In this document: in pieces, positions 1-41,014 of the stretch | How the letters are laid out: each line of letters starts with the position of its first letter | Position numbering within the stretch: the stretch's first letter is position 1 | Assembly (NCBI GenBank): GCA_016932785.1 | Contig: JAFGCJ010000002.1 | Span: forward strand, 273,777-337,776 | From: Candidatus Dojkabacteria bacterium | GTDB lineage: Bacteria > Patescibacteriota > Dojkabacteria > SC72 > JAFGCJ01 | Direction: 5' to 3' | DNA: 64,000 bases | Notes under the pieces: generated by a model | What the model saw: only the letters and a program-made list of their open reading frames with translations | What the model was told of the DNA's origin: nothing | The model's database searches: none | Translations under genes and position numbers: made by a program

Positions 1-526
1 TGACAAGATTAACCTCACCACTTTCAACAATTTCTGCCATACTATCTATGTAACCACCCATACCTTTTATTTGCGGTGTAAATAGCGGGCTATCCGATCC
101 TAATGCTTTTTGCTGGTCATGGGTCATAATGGCATTATCATAATATGGGGTAACGGTGAAGCCTAAACCGTACAAATCAGGCCTTAAATCATCATAGCTT
201 GTAAGCCGGTGAGGTAGCATATCGGCCTTACACACTAAGAAATGTCTCTTACCTAAAGCATGTCCAAATTGTATAGAAGCCCCGAATATAGTCACAGTCT
301 GCTGATTAAGACTAAAACGGATAGCACCTTCAGGAAAAAATGATGGATCGAAAACAGGATCAACAACACATGGAAGAGGGAAAAACTCGTCCGATAATGT
401 TCCAACACGTTCTCCGAGAGCTCTTCTAGCAGAATTAATTGTACTAACGCCAAGGAAATAGAGCACATTCTCTCTAGTATCGGGTTTCAAAGTTTTTGGG
501 TCATCGTATCGTTCAGTTATAAACAA
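1..526 (-). CDS. partial CDS: N-terminal ~175 codons of an unrecognised soluble protein (C-terminus beyond window edge)
   Basis: Hand translation of the minus strand is open from an in-frame stop at 551-553 down to nt 1 (..LFITERYDDPKTLKPDTRENVLYFLGVSTINSARRALGERVGTL..IKGMGGYIDSMAEIVESGEVNLV). It is absent from the ORF track because it has no stop in the window. There is no ATG; TTG at 526-524 is the first candidate start. Family not recognised. Confidence 0.5.
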   Translation of the reverse strand, partial: MFITERYDDPKTLKPDTRENVLYFLGVSTINSARRALGERVGTLSDEFFPLPCVVDPVFDPSFFPEGAIRFSLNQQTVTIFGASIQFGHALGKRHFLVCKADMLPHRLTSYDDLRPDLYGLGFTVTPYYDNAIMTHDQQKALGSDSPLFTPQIKGMGGYIDSMAEIVESGEVNLV

Positions 527-818
527 TATGTCAAGTGTTTTGATCTTAGATTATTTAGCCTAATAAATTATACTCCAAGTTAGGCCTTATCGCACGAACA
601 ATTATTATTGAATTTACATAATCCATTCCCAATATTTACATCACTCAACCAACTTATATCAAAAATGATTTACATTCTATCTCATTAACTCACCAATCTT
701 TCTAAAACCCGACTTACTTAGCACCTAAAAACCTTTAAGTGGCCTAACCCAGAAGAAATATTGTTTTTCCATAATAAGTGCTATAAACTTAAATAATACT
801 TTATTAAACAGTCCGTCT

Positions 819-1580
819 ATGGAAATCCTTCTATATTCACTCCTCTTATCATTAGGAATTCAGATTCTATTTTTTATTTTTGCTTTCCTTTTAAAGACGG
901 ACAAACTTACTGACCTTACATACGGGTTGACCTTCATAATTCTAGTTTTTTTCGCGATTACCCTGTCTCCTATGATTACAGTCAACAAAATAATCTTATT
1001 AGCAATGATCTGTTTATGGGCCCTAAGATTAATTTCCTACCTGTTCTATAGAATCAACAAAATGAAAAAGGATACACGGTTTGATGAGATGAGAACTGAT
1101 TTCCTCAAATTCGCACGGTTCTGGATCTTTCAGGGAATTTCAGTATGGATAATAATGCTCCCGTCATTAATATATTTTTCCCAACTAAAGTCTCACAGTT
1201 TCTCTATAGTCTCGGTATTAGGAATTATCATTTGGTTTACTGGACTATTGATTGAAACAATCGCTGACATTCAAAAGTTTATGTTTAAAAGCAAACCTGA
1301 GAATAAAGGCCTATGGATCGAATCGGGTCTATGGAAATATTCCCGTCATCCAAATTATTTCGGTGAAATTCTTTGCTGGGTAGGAGTTTTTACATTCATT
1401 ACGCCGATATTACGAAACTGGGAATTTTTAACAGTAATAAGCCCGTTATATATCACAACATTATTACTTTTTGTATCAGGAATCCCAATATTGGAAAAAA
1501 GATATAACGAACGCTACAAGAACAACAGAGATTATCAGGAGTACAAAAACTCAACAAGCTTGTTGATACCACTGCCATAG
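819..1580 (+). CDS. DUF1295 / steroid 5-alpha-reductase-like polytopic membrane protein
   Basis: 253-aa multi-TM ORF. The C-terminal WKYSRHPNYFGEILCWVG motif is typical of the DUF1295/ICMT-fold family. Confidence 0.75.
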   Translation: MEILLYSLLLSLGIQILFFIFAFLLKTDKLTDLTYGLTFIILVFFAITLSPMITVNKIILLAMICLWALRLISYLFYRINKMKKDTRFDEMRTDFLKFARFWIFQGISVWIIMLPSLIYFSQLKSHSFSIVSVLGIIIWFTGLLIETIADIQKFMFKSKPENKGLWIESGLWKYSRHPNYFGEILCWVGVFTFITPILRNWEFLTVISPLYITTLLLFVSGIPILEKRYNERYKNNRDYQEYKNSTSLLIPLP

Positions 1581-30674: not shown

Positions 30675-33446
30675 CTAAAAGGTTGATGTTGCAATAAAGG
30701 TAAGTTGGTCAGTATAGGTCCCAGTCCCATCTTCTATATCGGGACTTGCTCCAATTGCCCACTGCACACGTCCTCCCTGAACTGGATTACCATTCGTGTT
30801 AAGAATTTCTACCGGAGCAGATTGAGGAAGATCACAATAATAATCATCGCCTGAAGTACAGTCACAGTCACCGTGTATATTTAGGAACCCAGAAGTTGCA
30901 GTACTAACAAATCCACTGGGATGGTTAAGACCGTAATATCCACTTCCAGTTCCAGTAATCTGATACTCTGACCCCGAAGGAACGCTTGGGATTTCATTGC
31001 TAGCATCCTTATACAAAGCCTGGTTAGCACTGATAACGGTGACCACTCCTCCAGAGTCAGCATTTGTCTCAATATCCATCCAGATAGAATTTACGGTACC
31101 CGTAAGACCGTCGGCATGAAGTATACCGGTATCACCAGAGTTCCGAACCTCAGTTATAAGCATCTCACCAAGATCTACCACATAACCGGCATCATCACTT
31201 GCCCCGCTGTGGCTATCACAGGGACTGGTACCACCGGCAGCATCACAATCTACATCCGTAGTCGCCGTATCAATATCAAAACTTAATACCGTATCCACAT
31301 ACCCCGTTACATTGACAGTGTCATCATCAATGATAGGAACGGAAAGTTCACCGAAATCGATGTCCGTGCCATTATCAAGAGTTATCTGAGTATCATACTC
31401 TCCTACGTTATCAGGATTAATAATCAGAGTATCACCTTGACTCGGAGTATCTGTGTTTGTACCTATTTTAATGTGAACAACACTATTGGAAGCAATCTCT
31501 GTTGCACCCGCATCCGTAGGAGCCGTAAAAGTAATTACGTCATTTGTAGAATCAATATTTACCCCCCAAACTCCACTTCCTGCACTTGCCGCCAAGGTTT
31601 TATCTGCCCCATCATCCTCAAGATCGATATCGTCTATACCAATACCATTAAAATCAAAGTCATTTGTACCATCAGTAGTAGTTTGATTCGGAACAAAATC
31701 AACAGTTATAGTATCTCCAGATGAATTTATGGCATAAGTAGTTGTAAACTGAATATCATGATTCGACGCAGTGCTAACCTGCAACCTTGTCATAGTATCT
31801 TTTATCCCGACAAGACTAAACGCCCCTGTACCAGTAAGACCCGACACCTTCCAGTACTCCACCCCACCATCCATGACGACCTCAACGTTGGGATTTAGCT
31901 CATCCACATAGAACAAACCTTCACAATCAGGACCAACATCCTCAACCGATTGAGCATTAGGACAAATAGCCACTTGATCCCCTAAACCTTTTCTTACATA
32001 TAATGAATACGATCCTCCGCGAGAACCAGGCAGATCAGAAAAGCCTCCCGGATAGTGGAAAAACGCCTTTCCTTCACCAACGCCTGCATCCAACTCCTCC
32101 CAATTTAGATCCTCATCTACAAACTCCACGTCAAACTCCGCCACTCTAAGGTCACCTTCCTTAACACCTATTTCTACATCTCCAAGTTGCGGGTTCTCCC
32201 CTACATCCACAATCCACGAATCTGTTCTAACAGCATCAAGATTTTCAGCCAAGTTTATTACCTTGAAATGCTGCTCACAGTGAGTTGCATAGTCACAAGT
32301 ACCAGAGCCATCACACCCAGCCTGACACAAGAAGCTCCCGCCACGAGCATAATTATCATCACCATATGCAATGCTGAATGAATAAGTATCATTACACACA
32401 TTTTCGGCCTCACACTGACCACTGGAACATGCCGTGCCCGGTGGACAATTCCTCCAATCAAGTTCACCAGTCGGAAAGCTACAACTACCATCAGCTGCGC
32501 ATCTCATAACTTCTCTTCCCTGCTGACACAAAGAATCATTACACATACTAAATTCTCCATAATTGCAACTCAGGACATTATCCGTCCCACAGTTATCTGT
32601 GAGCGTATATCCTTCTTCCGCAACAACCTGCTGAAGATACGAATCCGTCTGATCGTCAGAGCTACGGCAGGAACCTGAACCATCACAAGATGTGAACCAC
32701 TGTGTACCAGTACAATTACCGGACACACAGGTTTCTCCGTAATAACAGTAGTACTCAGGGGAAACCTCAGATACAACTCCATTACCGGTACATGTTGAAC
32801 CAGATGGTATACTCTCTACATAGTCATTGGTATCACAAGATCCGTTCCCATCGCAATATCCATCTCCCCGTTTTCTTTGACACTGTCCATTGCAGCTCCA
32901 CGAAGTATATTGACACTCACTATCCGGATCGTGATTATCGTTAACATTATGACAAATTCCAGCCGTTCCATCATATGCATCGCACCGCTGACACGTTCCC
33001 GAGCAAGAAATATTACAACAGAAACCGTCGACACAATATCCTGAAGTGCATTCACTTGAATTAGAGCATGACTGTCCGTTATTCTTTGTAGAATCTGTCT
33101 CCGGAGAATGATATATCGTAGTACCTGGTGAACCTACTCGAACGACATCCTCCTGATCATCTGTCTGATCGTCTGAGGTTGAAACTCCTTTTACTCCTCC
33201 TGATGCACCATTTTCATCTTCATCACTAGAACGAGAAAATTGCGTTTCCTCTGACTTATCGAGGATATCATCATCTTCATCTTTAGAAGAAATAGGATCA
33301 AAAAGATAGATCCACAGCCAGAGAAGCAATAACAACATAATCATTATCTTCATACTGGTTTTAAGAACATCGCTATCAAGCCATGGAAATCTATTTTTCA
33401 ATTTCCATTTAATATTTCTTGCTTTTAGTCTTAATCTCGTAAACAT
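30675..33446 (-). CDS. large secreted Cys-rich surface protein (ORFan)
   Basis: 923 aa. N-terminal TM (IMIMLLLLLWLWIYLF), an acidic linker, about 300 aa of Cys-rich repeats (e.g. CSNSSECTSGYCVDGFCCNISCSGTCQRC), then a Thr/Asp/Gly-rich beta-type region. Confidence 0.65.
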   Translation of the reverse strand: MFTRLRLKARNIKWKLKNRFPWLDSDVLKTSMKIMIMLLLLLWLWIYLFDPISSKDEDDDILDKSEETQFSRSSDEDENGASGGVKGVSTSDDQTDDQEDVVRVGSPGTTIYHSPETDSTKNNGQSCSNSSECTSGYCVDGFCCNISCSGTCQRCDAYDGTAGICHNVNDNHDPDSECQYTSWSCNGQCQRKRGDGYCDGNGSCDTNDYVESIPSGSTCTGNGVVSEVSPEYYCYYGETCVSGNCTGTQWFTSCDGSGSCRSSDDQTDSYLQQVVAEEGYTLTDNCGTDNVLSCNYGEFSMCNDSLCQQGREVMRCAADGSCSFPTGELDWRNCPPGTACSSGQCEAENVCNDTYSFSIAYGDDNYARGGSFLCQAGCDGSGTCDYATHCEQHFKVINLAENLDAVRTDSWIVDVGENPQLGDVEIGVKEGDLRVAEFDVEFVDEDLNWEELDAGVGEGKAFFHYPGGFSDLPGSRGGSYSLYVRKGLGDQVAICPNAQSVEDVGPDCEGLFYVDELNPNVEVVMDGGVEYWKVSGLTGTGAFSLVGIKDTMTRLQVSTASNHDIQFTTTYAINSSGDTITVDFVPNQTTTDGTNDFDFNGIGIDDIDLEDDGADKTLAASAGSGVWGVNIDSTNDVITFTAPTDAGATEIASNSVVHIKIGTNTDTPSQGDTLIINPDNVGEYDTQITLDNGTDIDFGELSVPIIDDDTVNVTGYVDTVLSFDIDTATTDVDCDAAGGTSPCDSHSGASDDAGYVVDLGEMLITEVRNSGDTGILHADGLTGTVNSIWMDIETNADSGGVVTVISANQALYKDASNEIPSVPSGSEYQITGTGSGYYGLNHPSGFVSTATSGFLNIHGDCDCTSGDDYYCDLPQSAPVEILNTNGNPVQGGRVQWAIGASPDIEDGTGTYTDQLTFIATSTF

Positions 33447-33726
33447 CCCTACTCTTCTAGTAATAAGAGAAGTAAATGCCCGAATAAAGAAAAACTAACC
33501 CTTGGAAATGGGCAGATCATAGCCAGAATTACTGACTTAACTAACATTCAGGCAGTTTAATTAAACTGAGTTATGAGCCTAATATCAATCTATAGGAATT
33601 TCCATCCAAAGTCAACCCTGCAAAACCCCAGATATGCCTATAACAATGCGAAATATTGCGTAGGAACATAGTTCGAGTAGAAACATCATCAACTTTGAGC
33701 TATAATTACAACAATTTAATAGAAAA

Positions 33727-33938
33727 ATGCTTTGACGGAGAGGAATGGGCTCCTGAGCAGCAAGGCGAAAAGTAAGTAGCCGAGACGTAGTTCCTGCGTA
33801 AAAGGATACCCTGATGTTGATTCCACAAAGTCAGGACAAAGGCAAAATCAGCGATGATTTTGCAAAAAGGGGTGGCACCACGATAAACTCGTCCCCAAAC
33901 AAATGGATCTTTAGGATTCATCTGTTTGGGGATTTTTT
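33727..33938 (+). promoter_or_regulatory. T-box riboswitch leader (Trp specifier) with intrinsic terminator, upstream of trpS
   Basis: UUGACGGAG-AGGAAUGGG-CUCCUGAGC carries UGG at 33746-33748. Stem III is GCAAAATCA/TGATTTTGC. The T-box core AAAAAGGGGUGGCACCACG lies at 33864-33882. The antiterminator is GGGG / bulge UGGCACC / ACGA-UCGU / CCCC. The competing terminator CCCCAAACA..TGTTTGGGG plus U6 lies at 33893-33938. A TATAAT is present at 33701-33706. Confidence 0.85.
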
Positions 33939-33961
33939 GTTAAACTTATTATTAATATATT

Positions 33962-35476
33962 ATGAACAACCACAAAAAAATCAAAAACAAACTAGACAAA
34001 CTTGGATTTAAGTACCAGACTATTGACCTTGCCACAGAGTCTTTGGATCTCGACGAACAGGTCCGCGCAGGGAATCTTAAATACAGCGAATGTGTTGGAA
34101 CACTTCTAATCAAAGACCAACGGGGTAATTACTATGCTTTCCTTAGAAGAGACGACAGAAAAATGGATGCCGAAAAGGTGAAAACGATTATTGGAAGCGA
34201 CTCATTTGATTTCTGTGATGACAAAGACCTTGAAAAAATAGGATTCGAATCAGGACTTCTTTCTCCAGTACTACTAAACGACGGCAAAAAACCAATCAAA
34301 GTATTTGTAGATCAAAATATCAAAAAGATGAAAGTCGTTAACTGTGGACCGGCAATTCCCGGTGCAACCCTCCGTCTCGATAAAGACGATCTCCTCAAGG
34401 CAGTTGGAGAATATGAATTTATAGATTTTACACAGCCTAACCCCCAGAGATCTGATGATCTTTTCTCCTCTGATAAGGTTGTTTACACCGCTGATACCCC
34501 AACAGGTCAGATGCATATCGGACATTACGTTGGAACACTAGAAAATCGGGTTAAGCTCCAAGATAGATTCAACTGTTTTTTCGGACTTGCCAACTATCAC
34601 TCATTTTCATATATGCAAAAAGGTGAGGGCCTCTATAAGAATCCAGATTTTATTCACGAAGTGACTCTACAGGTTGCCATGGATAATCTAGCGGTAGGAA
34701 TAAACCCCGAAAAGTGTACCTACTATATCGAATCAGATGTTCCTGAGACATGTGAACTTGCAATGCTCTTCAGCATGCTGGTATCACACAACCGCGCCCT
34801 AAGAAATCCGACCATTAAGGACGAAATTAAACTAAAAGGCATGGGAAATCAGTTCTCACTTGGATTCATCAACTATCCAATGCTCCAAGCAGCGGATATC
34901 CTTATATTTAAAGCCGAATTAATTCCTGTCGGCAAAGACCAGTTGCCCCATATTGAGCAATCGAGAGAAATAGCCCGAGACTTTAACGAGCTATATGGTG
35001 AGACATTCCCAATTCCAGAGGGTCTTGTAGGAAAGGTCGGAATGCTTCCAGGACTTGATAACAAAAAAATGAGCAAAAGTCTCGGAAATGCTATCGTATT
35101 CACTGATTCCGACGAAGAAATCAAAAAGAAAATAATGAGCATGTACACCGATCCTAACAGGATACATCCGACTGATCCTGGCAAGGTAAAAGACAACCCC
35201 GTATTTATATACCATGAAGCTTTCAATCCAGATAAGGAAGAAATTGAAGATTTGAAGGAACGCTATGAAACCGGAAAAGTCGGCGATGTGGAGGTAAAGG
35301 AGAAACTGGCAAATGCTATGATTAATTTCATCGCTCCAATTCGAGAAAGAAGAAAGAAATACGAGGATAATCCTGACCTTCTAAGAGAAATTCTATCAGA
35401 AGGCGGCAAAAAAGCTAGAAAAGAAGCAAAGAAAACCATGTCCGAAGTCAGAGAAAAGATGAAACTGGACTTCTAG
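33962..35476 (+). CDS. trpS: tryptophan--tRNA ligase with N-terminal YbaK/ProX-like (tRNA_edit-type) domain
   Basis: Residues ~1-165 follow the YbaK pattern (..CVGTLLIKD..YYAFLRRDDRKMD..GFESGLLSPVLL..VNCGPAIPGATLRL). The class Ic core has TPTGQMHIGHYVG (HIGH), PMLQAADIL, GKDQLPHIEQSREIARDFN and KKMSKS. The upstream T-box has a UGG specifier. Confidence 0.85.
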   Translation: MNNHKKIKNKLDKLGFKYQTIDLATESLDLDEQVRAGNLKYSECVGTLLIKDQRGNYYAFLRRDDRKMDAEKVKTIIGSDSFDFCDDKDLEKIGFESGLLSPVLLNDGKKPIKVFVDQNIKKMKVVNCGPAIPGATLRLDKDDLLKAVGEYEFIDFTQPNPQRSDDLFSSDKVVYTADTPTGQMHIGHYVGTLENRVKLQDRFNCFFGLANYHSFSYMQKGEGLYKNPDFIHEVTLQVAMDNLAVGINPEKCTYYIESDVPETCELAMLFSMLVSHNRALRNPTIKDEIKLKGMGNQFSLGFINYPMLQAADILIFKAELIPVGKDQLPHIEQSREIARDFNELYGETFPIPEGLVGKVGMLPGLDNKKMSKSLGNAIVFTDSDEEIKKKIMSMYTDPNRIHPTDPGKVKDNPVFIYHEAFNPDKEEIEDLKERYETGKVGDVEVKEKLANAMINFIAPIRERRKKYEDNPDLLREILSEGGKKARKEAKKTMSEVREKMKLDF

Positions 35477-35949
35477 ATTTTTATTAAAGAATTTTCGTAA
35501 TCCTTAACTCTCTTCGGTTTACCAGTTCGGCTAAGCTCTATCTCGTGGCCCTCTGCTTTTAATTTTGCCACATGAGCCTCAGTTCCTCCCGGATACTTAG
35601 GATTTAATTCTCCACCTGCTTTAAGTGTCCTCCAGTAAGGTGTAATTTCATCAATTTTCTTACCACGCTCTTCCATATCCTCTTCCGCTGCCTTAGCGAC
35701 AAGTCCGACAAAAATACCGGTAACCATGGGACAACAGAAATCGGCTTTATATTTTTTGGAAAAGTAATCACGTATCTCTTCCTGGGTTATAAGCTTCCCT
35801 TTTGGAACTTTCTTCATAAGTTCCTCATACTCCGGGGCTGGAGGAATTACCATCTTTCCATGCATCTTCCAATTTCCACGAGGTTCGACATCTTTAATCA
35901 TTAGCTCTGTCTTGGAATTGAGCATCTCACGAGCTGTTTTTCTTGCCAT
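35473..35949 (-). CDS. MGMT/Atl-like DNA-binding-domain family protein (tentative)
   Basis: 158 aa. VPKGKLITQEEIRDYF .. ITPYWRTLKAGGELNPKYPGG .. KLKAEGHEI resembles the iP.Gkv.ty..ia / vPwhRVv..G.l / L..EG pattern of the methylated-DNA-protein-Cys methyltransferase DNA-binding domain. No PCHR active-site Cys is seen. Confidence 0.4.
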   Translation of the reverse strand: MARKTAREMLNSKTELMIKDVEPRGNWKMHGKMVIPPAPEYEELMKKVPKGKLITQEEIRDYFSKKYKADFCCPMVTGIFVGLVAKAAEEDMEERGKKIDEITPYWRTLKAGGELNPKYPGGTEAHVAKLKAEGHEIELSRTGKPKRVKDYENSLIKI

Positions 35950-35983: not shown

Positions 35984-38173
35984 TTACAGATATTTCAGAA
36001 TTTTAGCCTTGTCCATGTCAACAAACTCAACATTATCCTTATCTCTCTTTTTCATCTCAACCTTATCTTCCTTAAGAGTTTTTTCACTGATAACTATTCT
36101 TAATGGAATACCAATCAAATCAGCATCAGCAAATTTCACTCCTGGTGAAACGTCCGACCTGTCATCCCAAAGAATTTCAACCCCAGATTCTGAAAGATCG
36201 TTATATAGTTTTTCTGATTCTTTTGTGATCTTCTTACCATCGCCAATAGAAACAAGAATCACAGAGAACGGAGCAATGCTCCTGGGCCACACTATTCCGT
36301 TCTCATCGTGATGCATTTCAACAACTGAAGCCATAGCACGTCCAACGCCAATCCCATAGGCTCCCATCCACATAGGTTTTTCCTTCCCATCCTTATCAAC
36401 AAAATAAGCCTTGTGAGGATTAGTGTAATAATGATCATATTTAAAGATATGTCCAACCTCAATTGACTTCTTCTCCTTTAAATAACCGTCCTTACATTTG
36501 GGACACTTCGCACCATCGTATGCCGAGGCAATATCGTCTATCTTTGAAACTTTGAAATCACGACCATAATTAACATTGAATGAATCTGTTGTCTTTTCTT
36601 TAAGTCCTCCAATGAGGTTTTTAGACATTTTTAGTGCAATATCTCCGACATAAATCACATTATCCCTACCCTCATCATGACCCCACGAGTGAACCCACCC
36701 ACTCTTTGTACCAATACTCGTAAGGTCCTCCTCATCAGCATAGTCAAGAACATCAATATCGTCGAACAGATTGGCAATCTTTGTAGCGTTAGCCTCGAGA
36801 TCTCCTCGTACAACGGCAATTATCAATCGCCCCTTTTTGTCTTTGAAAACAACATTCTTAAGAAAATGGGACTTTGGCTTCTTATAATGCTCCACATTTT
36901 CATCCATGGTACATACCCACTCAGGCTGCTCAATAATCTCAAAAGGTTTTTCTTCTTCATCTATGTTTACAGAATCCCTCACAAATTCTGCCTTCTCGAC
37001 GTTTGCTTTATAGCCACACCGGTCACACATGACAATCTTATCTCCTCCTGCACTAAACACCTTGTCCTCTCGAACATCTACGAAGTCTTTTACTTTGAGA
37101 TCCCGTCCAATATTCACATTCTTACGAAAGACTCTCTCCTTATGGGCACCGTCATAATAGTTCTTGTTATATTTAACAGACTCATCGATAATAAGCTCAA
37201 CTTTGCTATCCAGCCCTATCGGAGAAACATAACCAATAAACGATCCCAACTCATCAATCTCAGATTTTGTTGCAGGTCGTATAGTCTTGTACTTAAGCAG
37301 TCTTCGAAGCTTAATGAAGTCAATCCTGTAATCTCCACGTATCGTAATACATATGTACTTTTTCCCATCAACAACATAGACCATGTTCTTCAAAGTTTTT
37401 TCCGGATGTTGTGCATAGAATTTTAGGATCTTCTTATACTCCTTCTGGTTCTTCGACACATCCTCAACTTCCATTCGGAGTTCTTTCTCGTCTTCATCAA
37501 AATATAAATCCAATTCCTGAACTCTTTCAGGGGTAATTACCATAAATTCATGACTATAATCTCCTCCGAGCGCACCATTGTCGGCAATCACAGCCTCTGT
37601 CTTAAGCCCAACACGATTAAAAATCTTCTCGTAGGCCTTCCAGTATGCATCGTAGGTCTTCATAAAAGACTTTTCATCCCTCTCATAATTGTAAGCATCC
37701 TTCATCAAAAACTCTCGAACCCTTATTAGTCCTCCCCGGGGCCTCAACTCATCCCTGAACTTGGGAAGAAACTGATATACATTTATAGGAAGATCTTTAT
37801 AGCTCGGCTTTTCTGACTTTATAACTTCAGTCATAAGCGCTTCAGCTGTAGCACTCATTGCAAAGGTACGGCCAAAATGATCCTTAGCCACAATCATTTG
37901 TTCCCCAAATGCCTCATCACGGTTAGTAATTCTCCAAGGCTCAATAGGCTGCATTATAGGCAGTTCCATTCTCTGAGAACCAATGGCCTCCATCTCCTCA
38001 ACGATTATCTTAATAATCTTATCCTTAACTCGATAACCAAGCGGCATGAATGCATATCTCCCAGTAGCAACCTGCCGAATGAAACCTCCCCTATAAAGGA
38101 GTCTGTGACTTTCAGCCTGTGCATCAGATGGAACGGTCTTAGATGTTTTCAAAAAGTATTCAGTAAATTTCAT
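35984..38173 (-). CDS. proS: proline--tRNA ligase, bacterial type, with duplicated INS (YbaK-like) editing module
   Basis: Class II motifs (FRDELRPRGGLIRVREFLMKDAY; GAYGIGVGRAMASVVE) and a C-terminal anticodon-binding region. At 729 aa it is longer than the usual ~570 aa. It has two INS-like units (LKNMVYV..ITIRGDYRIDFIKL..YVSPIG..NVNIGRDLKV and LKNVVFK..AVVRGDLEANATKI..NVNYGRDFKV). Confidence 0.9.
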   Translation of the reverse strand: MKFTEYFLKTSKTVPSDAQAESHRLLYRGGFIRQVATGRYAFMPLGYRVKDKIIKIIVEEMEAIGSQRMELPIMQPIEPWRITNRDEAFGEQMIVAKDHFGRTFAMSATAEALMTEVIKSEKPSYKDLPINVYQFLPKFRDELRPRGGLIRVREFLMKDAYNYERDEKSFMKTYDAYWKAYEKIFNRVGLKTEAVIADNGALGGDYSHEFMVITPERVQELDLYFDEDEKELRMEVEDVSKNQKEYKKILKFYAQHPEKTLKNMVYVVDGKKYICITIRGDYRIDFIKLRRLLKYKTIRPATKSEIDELGSFIGYVSPIGLDSKVELIIDESVKYNKNYYDGAHKERVFRKNVNIGRDLKVKDFVDVREDKVFSAGGDKIVMCDRCGYKANVEKAEFVRDSVNIDEEEKPFEIIEQPEWVCTMDENVEHYKKPKSHFLKNVVFKDKKGRLIIAVVRGDLEANATKIANLFDDIDVLDYADEEDLTSIGTKSGWVHSWGHDEGRDNVIYVGDIALKMSKNLIGGLKEKTTDSFNVNYGRDFKVSKIDDIASAYDGAKCPKCKDGYLKEKKSIEVGHIFKYDHYYTNPHKAYFVDKDGKEKPMWMGAYGIGVGRAMASVVEMHHDENGIVWPRSIAPFSVILVSIGDGKKITKESEKLYNDLSESGVEILWDDRSDVSPGVKFADADLIGIPLRIVISEKTLKEDKVEMKKRDKDNVEFVDMDKAKILKYL

Positions 38174-39281: not shown

Positions 39282-40907
39282 CTATCTCATTAGGTTCTCC
39301 AGACGTGTAATCAAATCCGCCATACTCTTAGGTTCAAAATGCCTTCTGGCGGGTTCCAAAATCTTTACTACTGCTTCAGATACAGCTGTCTTTAGATCCA
39401 ACGGATGAAGCTTGCCTTCCTCAAACAGATTAAACATTTCCTGCTCAGATTCAAAATTGATATCTCCTCCATGTTTCTTTTCTCTTTTGACCTCTAGCTT
39501 TCCTAAAATAGGAAAAACCAAGTGCTTCGCCCAATCTAAAACGGGATTAAACTCAATCTCCCTTTCAGGACAGAAAGCTCCATTTATCTTCCTTCGTATC
39601 TCATCGACACTGTCATGGATAAACACACACGTATCAGGCTTAGATTTACTCATTTTCATCTCTGACCAAAGTTCTCTAAGCCTTGCCTTATCCTTAATCG
39701 GCCAAACTGGCGGCTTACCAAGACCAAGAATTAGGTGGTGATGAATTGCAACAGGCTTTATCTTATTCTTGCTTTCGTCCAATAATGGAGAGACCTCGAG
39801 TTTTTCAGCAACTTCGCGAGCTATAACATGTGCCTTCCTCTGATCCATACCCCCATGAGCAATATTTACACCAATATTAAAAATATCATTAACCTGCATC
39901 GGCGGATATACAAGCCAGGCAAAGCATTGATTCTCTCCCTCACGCCTACCCATAATCGTGGAACTCTTTACTACACGAGCCAGAGTCAGATTCTTGGAGA
40001 CATCAATAAACGATTGCCAGTACTTATCATTATTGTGATAAAACTCAGATCCAAGGATAAAATTCACTTTCAACGGATCAGCCCCGGCACACTTCAACGA
40101 TGCAATTAATGCTTCCTTAAAATATCCCACTGCAACTTCAGTTATCGTCTCAAGATCTCCATTTAGCTTTCCATTTATCCAGGCATGCCAATCTGCAAGC
40201 AAGATATTGCACTCAACACCGGCCTTGAGTAGATCCTTGATTTTAAGAGCAGTCATAAGTCCGCTCCCAATATGGAGTTTACCGGAAATTTCAAAACCAA
40301 TATAATGGCGAAGCTTAGTTTCTCCAACTATCAGCGATTCCAGATCCTTCTCCGTAAGACACTCTTCAAGATTTCCCGTTATTAAACTTTTCTTCTTTTC
40401 TTGGCTGAGAGAAAGACTCATCTCTATTTTCTCCTTATTACTTAATTTATCGGCCAATTGGGTCACTCTAACATTATGCAATTTACTCAGTGCTTCTTCA
40501 ACACTAAGGTTTATACCCTTAGCCAAATCCCCGGCTCCCATACTCCATCTATCCATATCCGCGGCTTCTTTATCAACCAATATTGGGATGTCAAGCAGGA
40601 AAGGATTTAAACACCCTGGCCGAAACTTAAAATTTTCCGCTAATGCTTGTTCGTCCAGAATATCCCATTTCCCGATGTTTTTCCTCAGAAGCTTCTGATC
40701 AATGCGTTGATCCCCCTTAAGCAGAACAGCAAAAAAGCCCTCAGATGTTTTCACAACTAAAGTCTTTATTGCAATTTGCGGATCATAATTCTTGTCCACT
40801 GAAGAATCGACCTTTCGAGCAGATATGGCCCTATCCGTAAAAGTAATTTCTTCAAAGTTCAGTCCTATTTTCTTCAATTTTCTGGCAACAGAATCAAATG
40901 TATGCAT
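39282..40907 (-). CDS. tyrS: tyrosine--tRNA ligase, archaeal/eukaryotic type, with N-terminal YbaK/ProX-like domain
   Basis: The core closely parallels M. jannaschii TyrRS from memory: HYIGFEISGKLHIGSG, LLADWHAWIN, YPPMQVNDIFNIGVNIAHGGMDQRKAHVIARE, KMSKSKPDTCVFIHDS and HGGDINFESEQEMFNLFEEGKLHPLDLKTAVSEAVVKILEPARR. The N-terminal ~160 aa follow the YbaK pattern (..IAIKTLVVK..FFAVLLKGDQRID..FRPGCLNPFLL..SMGAGDLAKGINLS). Confidence 0.88.
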   Translation of the reverse strand: MHTFDSVARKLKKIGLNFEEITFTDRAISARKVDSSVDKNYDPQIAIKTLVVKTSEGFFAVLLKGDQRIDQKLLRKNIGKWDILDEQALAENFKFRPGCLNPFLLDIPILVDKEAADMDRWSMGAGDLAKGINLSVEEALSKLHNVRVTQLADKLSNKEKIEMSLSLSQEKKKSLITGNLEECLTEKDLESLIVGETKLRHYIGFEISGKLHIGSGLMTALKIKDLLKAGVECNILLADWHAWINGKLNGDLETITEVAVGYFKEALIASLKCAGADPLKVNFILGSEFYHNNDKYWQSFIDVSKNLTLARVVKSSTIMGRREGENQCFAWLVYPPMQVNDIFNIGVNIAHGGMDQRKAHVIAREVAEKLEVSPLLDESKNKIKPVAIHHHLILGLGKPPVWPIKDKARLRELWSEMKMSKSKPDTCVFIHDSVDEIRRKINGAFCPEREIEFNPVLDWAKHLVFPILGKLEVKREKKHGGDINFESEQEMFNLFEEGKLHPLDLKTAVSEAVVKILEPARRHFEPKSMADLITRLENLMR

Positions 40908-40931: not shown

Positions 40932-41014
40932 TCCAGGGGGCAGGATTCGAACCTGCGAAGCCTTTCAGCGTTGGATTTACAGTCCAATGCATTTGACCAC
41001 TCTGCCACCCCTGG
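40932..41014 (-). tRNA. tRNA-Tyr (anticodon GUA), class II with long variable arm, no encoded CCA
   Basis: Minus strand: CCAGGGG-UG-GCA(GAGUGGUCAAA)UGC-A-UUGGA(CUGUAAA)UCCAA-CGCUGAAAGGCUUC-GCAGG(UUCGAAU)CCUGC-CCCCUGG-A. It has a 7-bp acceptor stem, the T-loop consensus and discriminator A. It ends 24 nt upstream of the tyrS ATG. Confidence 0.92.

Follow-up and report, generated by a model that had tools for sequence, protein, structure and literature searches.

The 64,000-nucleotide (nt) stretch of Candidatus Dojkabacteria contig JAFGCJ010000002.1 analysed here, referred to below as the window, contains a trpS gene (33962..35476, plus strand) in which a YbaK/INS-fold domain is fused to the N-terminus of a tryptophanyl-tRNA synthetase (TrpRS). 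At the column where members of this superfamily with solved structures carry a catalytic lysine, the fused domain has a glycine, G46. Alignment of homologues shows the loss of this lysine to be the hallmark of a distinct, TrpRS-linked subfamily of the Patescibacteria and not a one-off mutation. Judged by these sequence features, the domain is most aptly placed in a new subfamily of PF04073 and the INS superfamily, one that is Lys-less and linked to TrpRS.

A folded YbaK/INS-type domain on TrpRS

The 504-amino-acid (aa) open reading frame (ORF) was analysed with Pfam, NCBIfam and AlphaFold2 (AF2). Its N-terminal domain covers residues 1–160 (33962..34441) and is joined by a linker of residues 161–172 (PQRSDDLFSSDK; 34442..34477), where the predicted local distance difference test score (pLDDT) falls to 68–77, to a bacterial-type TrpRS core of residues 173–504 (34478..35473). 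Searched on its own against Pfam, the N-terminal part matched PF04073 (tRNA_edit) at residues 33–146 with an E-value of 8.8e-20 and 71.5 bits (gathering score 25.5), and the match spans 113 of the 123 profile positions. The TrpRS part matched PF00579 over residues 173–456 and the NCBIfam model TIGR00233 (trpS) at 276.3 bits, against a cutoff of 176.75. The HIGH (residues 185–188, 34514..34525) and KMSKS (residues 369–373, 35066..35080) motifs can be read in the sequence, and H185, G187, H188, K369, M370 and K372 are invariant across 45 fusions. NCBIfam returned only sub-threshold local matches for the N-terminal domain, to ProRS and YbaK models: the YbaK/EbsC equivalog TIGR00011 scored 31 bits, below its cutoff of 153.25, and the ProRS model NF006625 matched locally with 31.5 bits against 558.

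The AF2 model of residues 1–171 has a pLDDT of 93.6 and a predicted TM-score (pTM) of 0.89, with residues 151–160 still ordered at pLDDT 98. When this model was compared with PDB using Foldseek, all 37 significant matches were YbaK-fold structures (TM 0.6–0.78). They include YbaK/ProX-type proteins, the TTHA1699-scaffold designs 3RI0 and 3RIJ and ProRS INS domains, as well as larger proteins that contain the fold (SadB, 9QZK; Maqu_0641, 3MEM). TTHA1699, YbaK, APE2540 and Atu3699 were matched at E-values of ∼1e-11 to 1e-10 (TM 0.71–0.78). The full-length model (pLDDT 90.1, pTM 0.73, linker pLDDT 68) gave no confident arrangement of the two domains relative to one another. Taken together, these results show that residues 1–160 form a genuine folded YbaK/INS-superfamily domain, placed about 12 residues from a complete TrpRS. 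An earlier sequence-only reading of this DNA had proposed a YbaK/ProX-like domain on TrpRS, and the homology is borne out by Pfam, profile and Foldseek comparisons alike.

Glycine at the column of the conserved lysine

G46 (34097..34099) lies within the motif C44-VGTLLI-K51 (34091..34114), which can be read directly from the sequence. In pairwise phmmer alignments to PDB sequences, it is aligned with the Lys of APE2540 (IVKTLIV) and of TTHA1699 (IVKSLVF). A family profile of 33 fused domains, searched against PDB, placed the same column on a Lys in APE2540, the Staphylococcus aureus ProRS INS domain (IAKTMIF), lpg1207 (LAKTVII), Haemophilus influenzae YbaK (SFKTLLV, K46) and Escherichia coli YbaK (VYKTLLV). 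The two approaches agree on G46, as the sequence-only reading had suggested. The alignments were also inspected for a Lys shifted by a few residues that might take over the catalytic position, and none was found. K51, the only nearby Lys, aligns with the second Lys of the ProXp-ala motif NLFLKD; it is also present in Lys-bearing relatives, and its odd residue offset points it to the opposite face of the strand.

Other elements of the canonical active site can be recognised in the window domain. The GXXXP loop is intact (G98-L-L-S-P102, 34253..34267). The one residue that never varies in the fused-domain family, G129 (34346..34348), corresponds to the Gly of the ‘GAN’ motif in ProRS INS. T47, D65, D117, G129 and D143 are among the conserved positions. 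Column statistics place R62-R63-D64-D65 (34145..34156) where a hydrophobic-x-G-D (‘RGD’) motif is otherwise found.

A Lys-less clade linked to trpS

With the domain alone as query, a word-indexed search gave no homologues; these were recovered with the full-length query and by an exhaustive profile search. Among the best 120 TrpRS matches, 49 were fusions, defined as proteins of at least 450 aa with a PF04073 match; those that carry a name all belong to the Patescibacteria (annotated as Dojkabacteria, WS6 or ‘Patescibacteria group’). A TrpRS with this appendage had been called unusual, which holds relative to model organisms but not among these matches. Of the 49 fusions, P0062 and P0080 alone carry Lys at the column. 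Gly is found in the six closest (61–77% identity), and the remaining non-Lys fusions have Ser, Pro, Ala or Thr, so that the loss extends across the clade and is not confined to G46.

The profile search of 1.84 billion cluster representatives yielded 7,496 matches at E ≤ 1e-3. In the best 150 of these, the column holds Lys in 85, a gap in two and another residue in 63 (P31, S14, A10, G4, Q1, E1, L1, R1). Approximately 190 short domains were ordered by a neighbour-joining distance tree, on which clade monophyly is provisional, and the non-Lys sequences fell into two blocks, clade A and clade B. Clade A comprises 84 domains, of which 62 belong to proteins of 450 aa or more, and includes the window protein and essentially all TrpRS fusions. 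The 19 members of clade B, among them P0197 and P0271–P0273, are standalone proteins of ∼150 aa in which Pro occupies the Lys column and the loop Pro is missing. Its members occur in ordinary bacteria such as Cohnella xylanilytica and are publicly annotated as YbaK/EbsC family proteins or aminoacyl-tRNA deacylases. Since clade B also lacks the Lys, this residue is not universal in PF04073; its earlier description as strictly conserved does not hold for the Pfam family as a whole.

Clade A can be recognised by a small residue at position 46 followed by T-L, by R/K62-R63-x-D65, G98 and G129, and by physical linkage to trpS. The window protein has G46-T47-L48, R62-R63-D64-D65, G98, G129 and the TrpRS fusion itself. 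We compared the 84 domains with a set of 86 Lys-bearing domains column by column. At position 46, clade A has S35, P22, A14, G10, T2 and Q1, all small but the single Gln, whereas every member of the Lys-bearing set has Lys. Position 62 is Arg or Lys in 79/84 of clade A against Leu, Ile, Val or Met in 75/86 of the Lys-bearing set, and position 63 is Arg in 76/84 against 20/86. The Gly of GXXXP (position 98) is kept by 80/84 and 85/86, respectively, and the Pro (position 102) by 44/84 and 86/86. In the 34-member subclade of the window protein, conservation reaches 100% for R63, D64, D65 and G129 and 97% for P102.

In both AF2 models, DSSP assigns strands at residues 44–52 and 57–63, linked by a four-residue turn. 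From this strand register, residues 46 and 63 would be paired directly across an antiparallel hairpin, their side chains on the same face. The loss of K46 and the gain of R62 were also considered as an instance of repeated co-evolution, a notion that was rejected: the neighbour-joining ordering maps the coupling to essentially one clade, and it therefore counts as one historical event and not as independent replication.

Fusion architectures and the Lys-bearing TyrRS counterpart

The usual place of the clade A domain is N-terminal to TrpRS, and several other arrangements occur. Tandem clade A domains were found in P0033, P0034, P0039 and P0121, where the two copies come from different subclades and both are Lys-less. 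P0134 (744 aa; L006, 221..2455) combines a B3_4 domain, a tRNA_edit domain with Gly at the column and TrpRS; the B3_4 domain is an editing-type domain of the PheRS-beta/CtdA type. In P0163, the Lys-less domain is C-terminal to the synthetase. In P0122, a separate gene of 168 aa encodes it, and 7 nt separate the end of this gene from trpS, which encodes a class Ic synthetase of 331 aa. Finally, locus L007 carries a standalone 153-aa clade A domain (342..803) with Ser at the Lys column, and 34 nt downstream lies a PheRS alpha-like gene (837..1502; YLGKKG..., HPARD), recognised by eye. The neighbouring pheS candidate is a hint of a possible further association, between the Lys-less domain and a second synthetase for an aromatic amino acid.

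The window encodes a second synthetase of this kind, a TyrRS of archaeal type whose N-terminus carries a tRNA_edit domain (39282..40907, minus strand; PF04073). As previously reported for this gene, the domain contains AIKTLVVK, and its GXXXP loop is also present (GCLNP). Both Lys and GXXXP are kept in 8/8 TyrRS fusions recovered, which indicates that the loss is specific to the TrpRS-linked subfamily and not part of a lineage-wide decay. One of these fusions, P0280, lies on a 45,569-bp contig, equal in length to the contig on which P0001, a Gly-type TrpRS fusion, is encoded. Within the window, the TyrRS domain is 24% identical to the TrpRS domain. In the neighbour-joining ordering it falls outside clade A, together with standalone ‘GxVCP’ proteins and the two TrpRS fusions that have Lys, P0062 and P0080. 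The nearest unfused relatives of the window TyrRS are annotated as Pacearchaeota or Nanoarchaeota (DPANN archaea).

Selection on the fused domain

The window gene was compared with P0001 and P0004 (loci L004 and L005). Synonymous sites are saturated (proportion of synonymous differences, pS, 0.79–0.97), and the proportion of nonsynonymous differences (pN) is therefore reported against pS instead of dN/dS. With pN of 0.20–0.27 in the domain and 0.12–0.16 in the core, the domain is under purifying selection and evolves ∼1.7 times faster than the core. Sequence identity follows the same course, as 80% identity in the core goes with 57–70% in the domain, and ∼62% in the core with 21–30% in the domain. 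In TrpRSs that are 72–79% identical in the core the domain is wholly absent; at locus L002, the unfused trpS begins 58 nt after proS. Its absence from such close sister enzymes, together with pN far below pS, suggests that the module is beneficial but not essential to the TrpRS scaffold.

A domain that has lost its Lys, evolves faster than its core and is missing from close sister lineages might also be the functionless relic of a once-active editing domain that is still in the process of being lost. This we consider very improbable. The ORF is intact in all ∼50 fusions, down to 20–30% domain identity, and a pN so far below pS is not that of a decaying sequence. Moreover, the domain is modelled by AF2 with very high confidence, the clade-specific R62, R63 and D64 have been gained and fixed, and the fusion architectures arose repeatedly and independently.

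Possible function of the Lys-less domain

The characterised members of the INS superfamily are all described as using a conserved Lys together with GXXXP, stabilising the aminoacyl-tRNA during hydrolysis (PMC11286415), and K279A ProRS has been used as an editing-defective enzyme (PMC3973320). Because the Lys is absent from the TrpRS domain and is used by all characterised members, we infer that the Lys-dependent hydrolysis of INS, YbaK and ProXp-ala cannot operate there. The sequence-only reading had proposed either a non-catalytic binding module or a different mechanism, and these are still the two live options after our analysis.

Our preference, held tentatively, is for the first: the domain may be a cis-acting pseudo-editing module that binds the acceptor end of tRNA(Trp). 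A basic patch of K51, R62 and R63 would, with the retained pocket, grip the acceptor/CCA end, and the domain would help a very small bacterial TrpRS to bind or hand over its tRNA without any hydrolysis. This mode of action can be likened to that of the AlaX-like domain of Plasmodium TrpRS. The P. falciparum enzyme is described as having an N-terminal AlaX-like domain without key editing residues (Khan et al., 2013, in PMC4828885); TrpRS activity is reported to depend on this domain, for which a role in assisting tRNA binding has been put forward (PMC4828885).

Several features of clade A are consistent with a pseudo-editing role. The residues that replace the Lys share no functional group, and the loss of the GXXXP Pro from 40/84 of clade A, compared with 0/86 of the Lys-bearing set, points to relaxed constraint on the canonical catalytic apparatus. 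The gain of basic residues at positions 62 and 63 would fit binding to an RNA backbone. The selection data (faster evolution, pN far below pS and absence from sister TrpRSs) likewise suit a domain that is useful but dispensable. TrpRS is not known to have an editing activity, since Trp has no known larger near-cognate among the proteinogenic amino acids.

Other observations weigh against a purely RNA-binding role. The window protein and its subclade keep GXXXP, T47, D65, D117 and G129, and the most conserved positions still map to canonical active-site elements. The restriction of position 46 to small residues, with R63 predicted opposite it, looks like compensation and not decay. The tandems of domains from different subclades and the B3_4 co-fusion look less like a generic RNA-binding tag than like several enzymes of differing specificity. 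Furthermore, TyrRS in the same genomes carries a canonical-looking, Lys-bearing domain, so selection seems to favour proofreading modules on class Ic synthetases in these organisms.

These same observations are the basis of the second option, namely that the domain is an active, rewired deacylase that proofreads tRNA(Trp) in cis and in which R63, helped by R/K62, replaces the Lys. The charge of R63 would hold the A76 phosphate, while the GXXXP backbone and the substrate's own groups would do the chemistry. The substrate might be a non-cognate aminoacyl-tRNA(Trp), carrying for example a Trp analogue or another aromatic amino acid, with D-Trp as a further possibility. D-aminoacyl-tRNAs classically arise through TyrRS and TrpRS and are cleared by D-aminoacyl-tRNA deacylase (DTD), for which the TyrRS and TrpRS domains might conceivably stand in; we found no literature that links DTD and Patescibacteria. 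Conservation of the GXXXP loop (GLLSP), T47, D65, D117 and G129 speaks for this option, as does the near-complete conservation of R63, D64, D65 and P102 in the 34-member subclade. The small residue at 46, the prevalence of R63 in clade A compared with Lys-bearing relatives and the hairpin register that sets 46 opposite 63 also fit a cross-strand replacement. The variety of architectures, from the tandems and the B3_4 co-fusion (P0134) to the C-terminal fusion (P0163) and the adjacent gene (P0122), is further evidence in its favour, as are the eight intact TyrRS domains, which include one apparently from the genome that carries P0001.

However, the Lys is needed in every case that has been studied, and R63 already stands beside the Lys in 20/86 relatives and is thus not a new replacement. 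Pro occupies position 46 in 22/84 of clade A, GXXXP is degenerate in half of the clade, and no natural mischarging problem of TrpRS is known. On balance, a rewired deacylase in the window protein is conceivable but somewhat doubtful. That clade A as a whole would be a Lys-independent deacylase with a cross-strand Arg, and hence a new catalytic variety of the INS superfamily, strikes us as rather unlikely.

Relation to known editing domains

YbaK, a Cys-tRNA(Pro) deacylase (H. influenzae HI1434, 1DBU/1DBX; E. coli, 2DXA), has the same fold as the TrpRS domain (Foldseek E 2.6e-11, TM 0.71–0.79) and belongs to the same Pfam family, and its K-T-L-L strand, GXXXP loop and Gly-rich loop can be aligned. 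It differs in that K46 of YbaK is Gly in the TrpRS domain, and in being free-standing, whereas the domain described here is fused to a class I TrpRS. The R62/R63/D64 signature belongs to the TrpRS domain, which also falls below the TIGR00011 cutoff. The INS domain of ProRS, which edits Ala-tRNA(Pro) in cis, offers a precedent for a YbaK-fold module within a synthetase, and the fused-domain profile matches the S. aureus ProRS INS at E 2e-18. However, INS interrupts a class II synthetase between its motifs 2 and 3, has GXXXP and needs K279, while the TrpRS domain forms the N-terminus of a class I synthetase and lacks the Lys.

The best sequence and structure matches are to free-standing ProX/PrdX-type proteins (APE2540, 1WDV; TTHA1699, 2CX5/2Z0K; ProXp-ala, 5VXB), with APE2540 reaching E 7.6e-22 in the profile search and TM 0.76/0.86. 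ProXp-ala shares K51 as the second Lys of its NLFLKD motif. All of these proteins, however, keep the conserved Lys (K45 in ProXp-ala), and none is linked to TrpRS. The closest functional analogy is the AlaX-like domain of P. falciparum TrpRS, which is likewise N-terminal and homologous to a trans-editing factor but without its key editing residues. It has the AlaX and not the YbaK fold, is attached to a eukaryotic-type TrpRS and had an independent origin. The TyrRS domain (39282..40907, with seven further fused homologues) belongs to the same superfamily and is likewise N-terminal, on the sister class Ic synthetase, but it represents another subfamily that has kept both Lys and GXXXP.

No bacterial TrpRS–YbaK or TyrRS–YbaK fusion and no Lys-less INS clade was found in the literature searched, which left most subscription journals outside its coverage, so that a prior description is possible; the TrpRS fusion architecture is already visible in automatic Pfam annotation. 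As far as we know, TrpRS and TyrRS are textbook synthetases without editing domains. A large, selected, TrpRS-linked subfamily that breaks the Lys and GXXXP rule of the INS superfamily challenges this view. If the domain is inactive, it would be the second independent case, after Plasmodium, of a TrpRS that has recruited a disarmed editing fold, and would suggest that minimal TrpRSs have a general need for help with their tRNA. If it is active, a well-studied fold would have acquired a new means of catalysis, and Patescibacteria (also known as CPR bacteria) would have a proofreading step that is new. A Lys-independent deacylase would give TrpRS post-transfer editing where none was assumed to be needed, and the TrpRS domain and its Lys-bearing TyrRS counterpart could then be built-in proofreaders of aromatic or D-aminoacyl-tRNAs in minimal genomes.

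T-box leader and start codon of trpS

A T-box leader precedes trpS (33723..33899, plus strand; RF00230, 59.3 bits, E 1.9e-12). Its score is below the gathering score of 93, and it was missed at the Rfam gathering threshold and appeared when an E-value threshold was used. Stem I is drastically shortened, with 72 model positions replaced by 5. A candidate UGG specifier was located in GGAGAGGAAUGGGCUCC, and the 3' part of the T-box alignment contains a terminator hairpin and U-run (CGUCCCCAAAC...GUUUGGGGAUUUUUUG; 33890..33941, plus strand), the latter ending 21 nt upstream of the ATG at 33962. A homologous leader lies 5' of the fused trpS at L004 (7733..7935), and a similar one 5' of proS-trpS at L002 (3431..3660).

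The public NCBI model of the protein (P0002) has only 382 aa. It is 100% identical to our translation and begins with MKVVNCGP at M123 (34328); the N-terminal 122 residues are thus left out. If this start were correct, the domain would not be translated as such, which we find scarcely credible. M123 falls within a β-strand of a confidently folded domain, the full-length ORF is conserved in homologues, and residues 1–150 are under purifying selection at the codon level. The position of the leader and terminator, the codon-level selection and the fold prediction together indicate that the 382-aa start has been mis-called. In practical terms, the public annotation shortens the protein by cutting through the domain.

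Neighbouring genes

A tRNA-Tyr(GTA) gene lies directly upstream of the TyrRS gene (40932..41014). On the other side of trpS, and divergent from its leader, a minus-strand gene (30675..33446) encodes a Cys-rich, Asp/Thr/Gly-rich predicted secreted protein of 923 aa, for which no Pfam match was found. Between trpS and proS lies a 158-aa ORF (35473..35949, minus strand), which overlaps trpS by 4 nt at the stop codon and matches only the MGMT DNA-binding domain, weakly (E 0.029). ORFs of 157–159 aa, similar in size to the window ORF and without a Pfam match, accompany proS/trpS at L001–L004.

The proS gene itself (35984..38173, minus strand) encodes a 729-aa bacterial-type ProRS with two INS-like stretches and a Cys-rich stretch between them. 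The first INS-like stretch is canonical (LKNMVYV... GYVSP), and the second (FLKNVVFK... GWVHS) keeps the Lys and lacks the loop Pro. Among relatives, L002, L003 and L004 encode a similarly long ProRS of 735–782 aa, and an archaeal-type ProRS without INS is found at L001 (479 aa) and L005 (481 aa).

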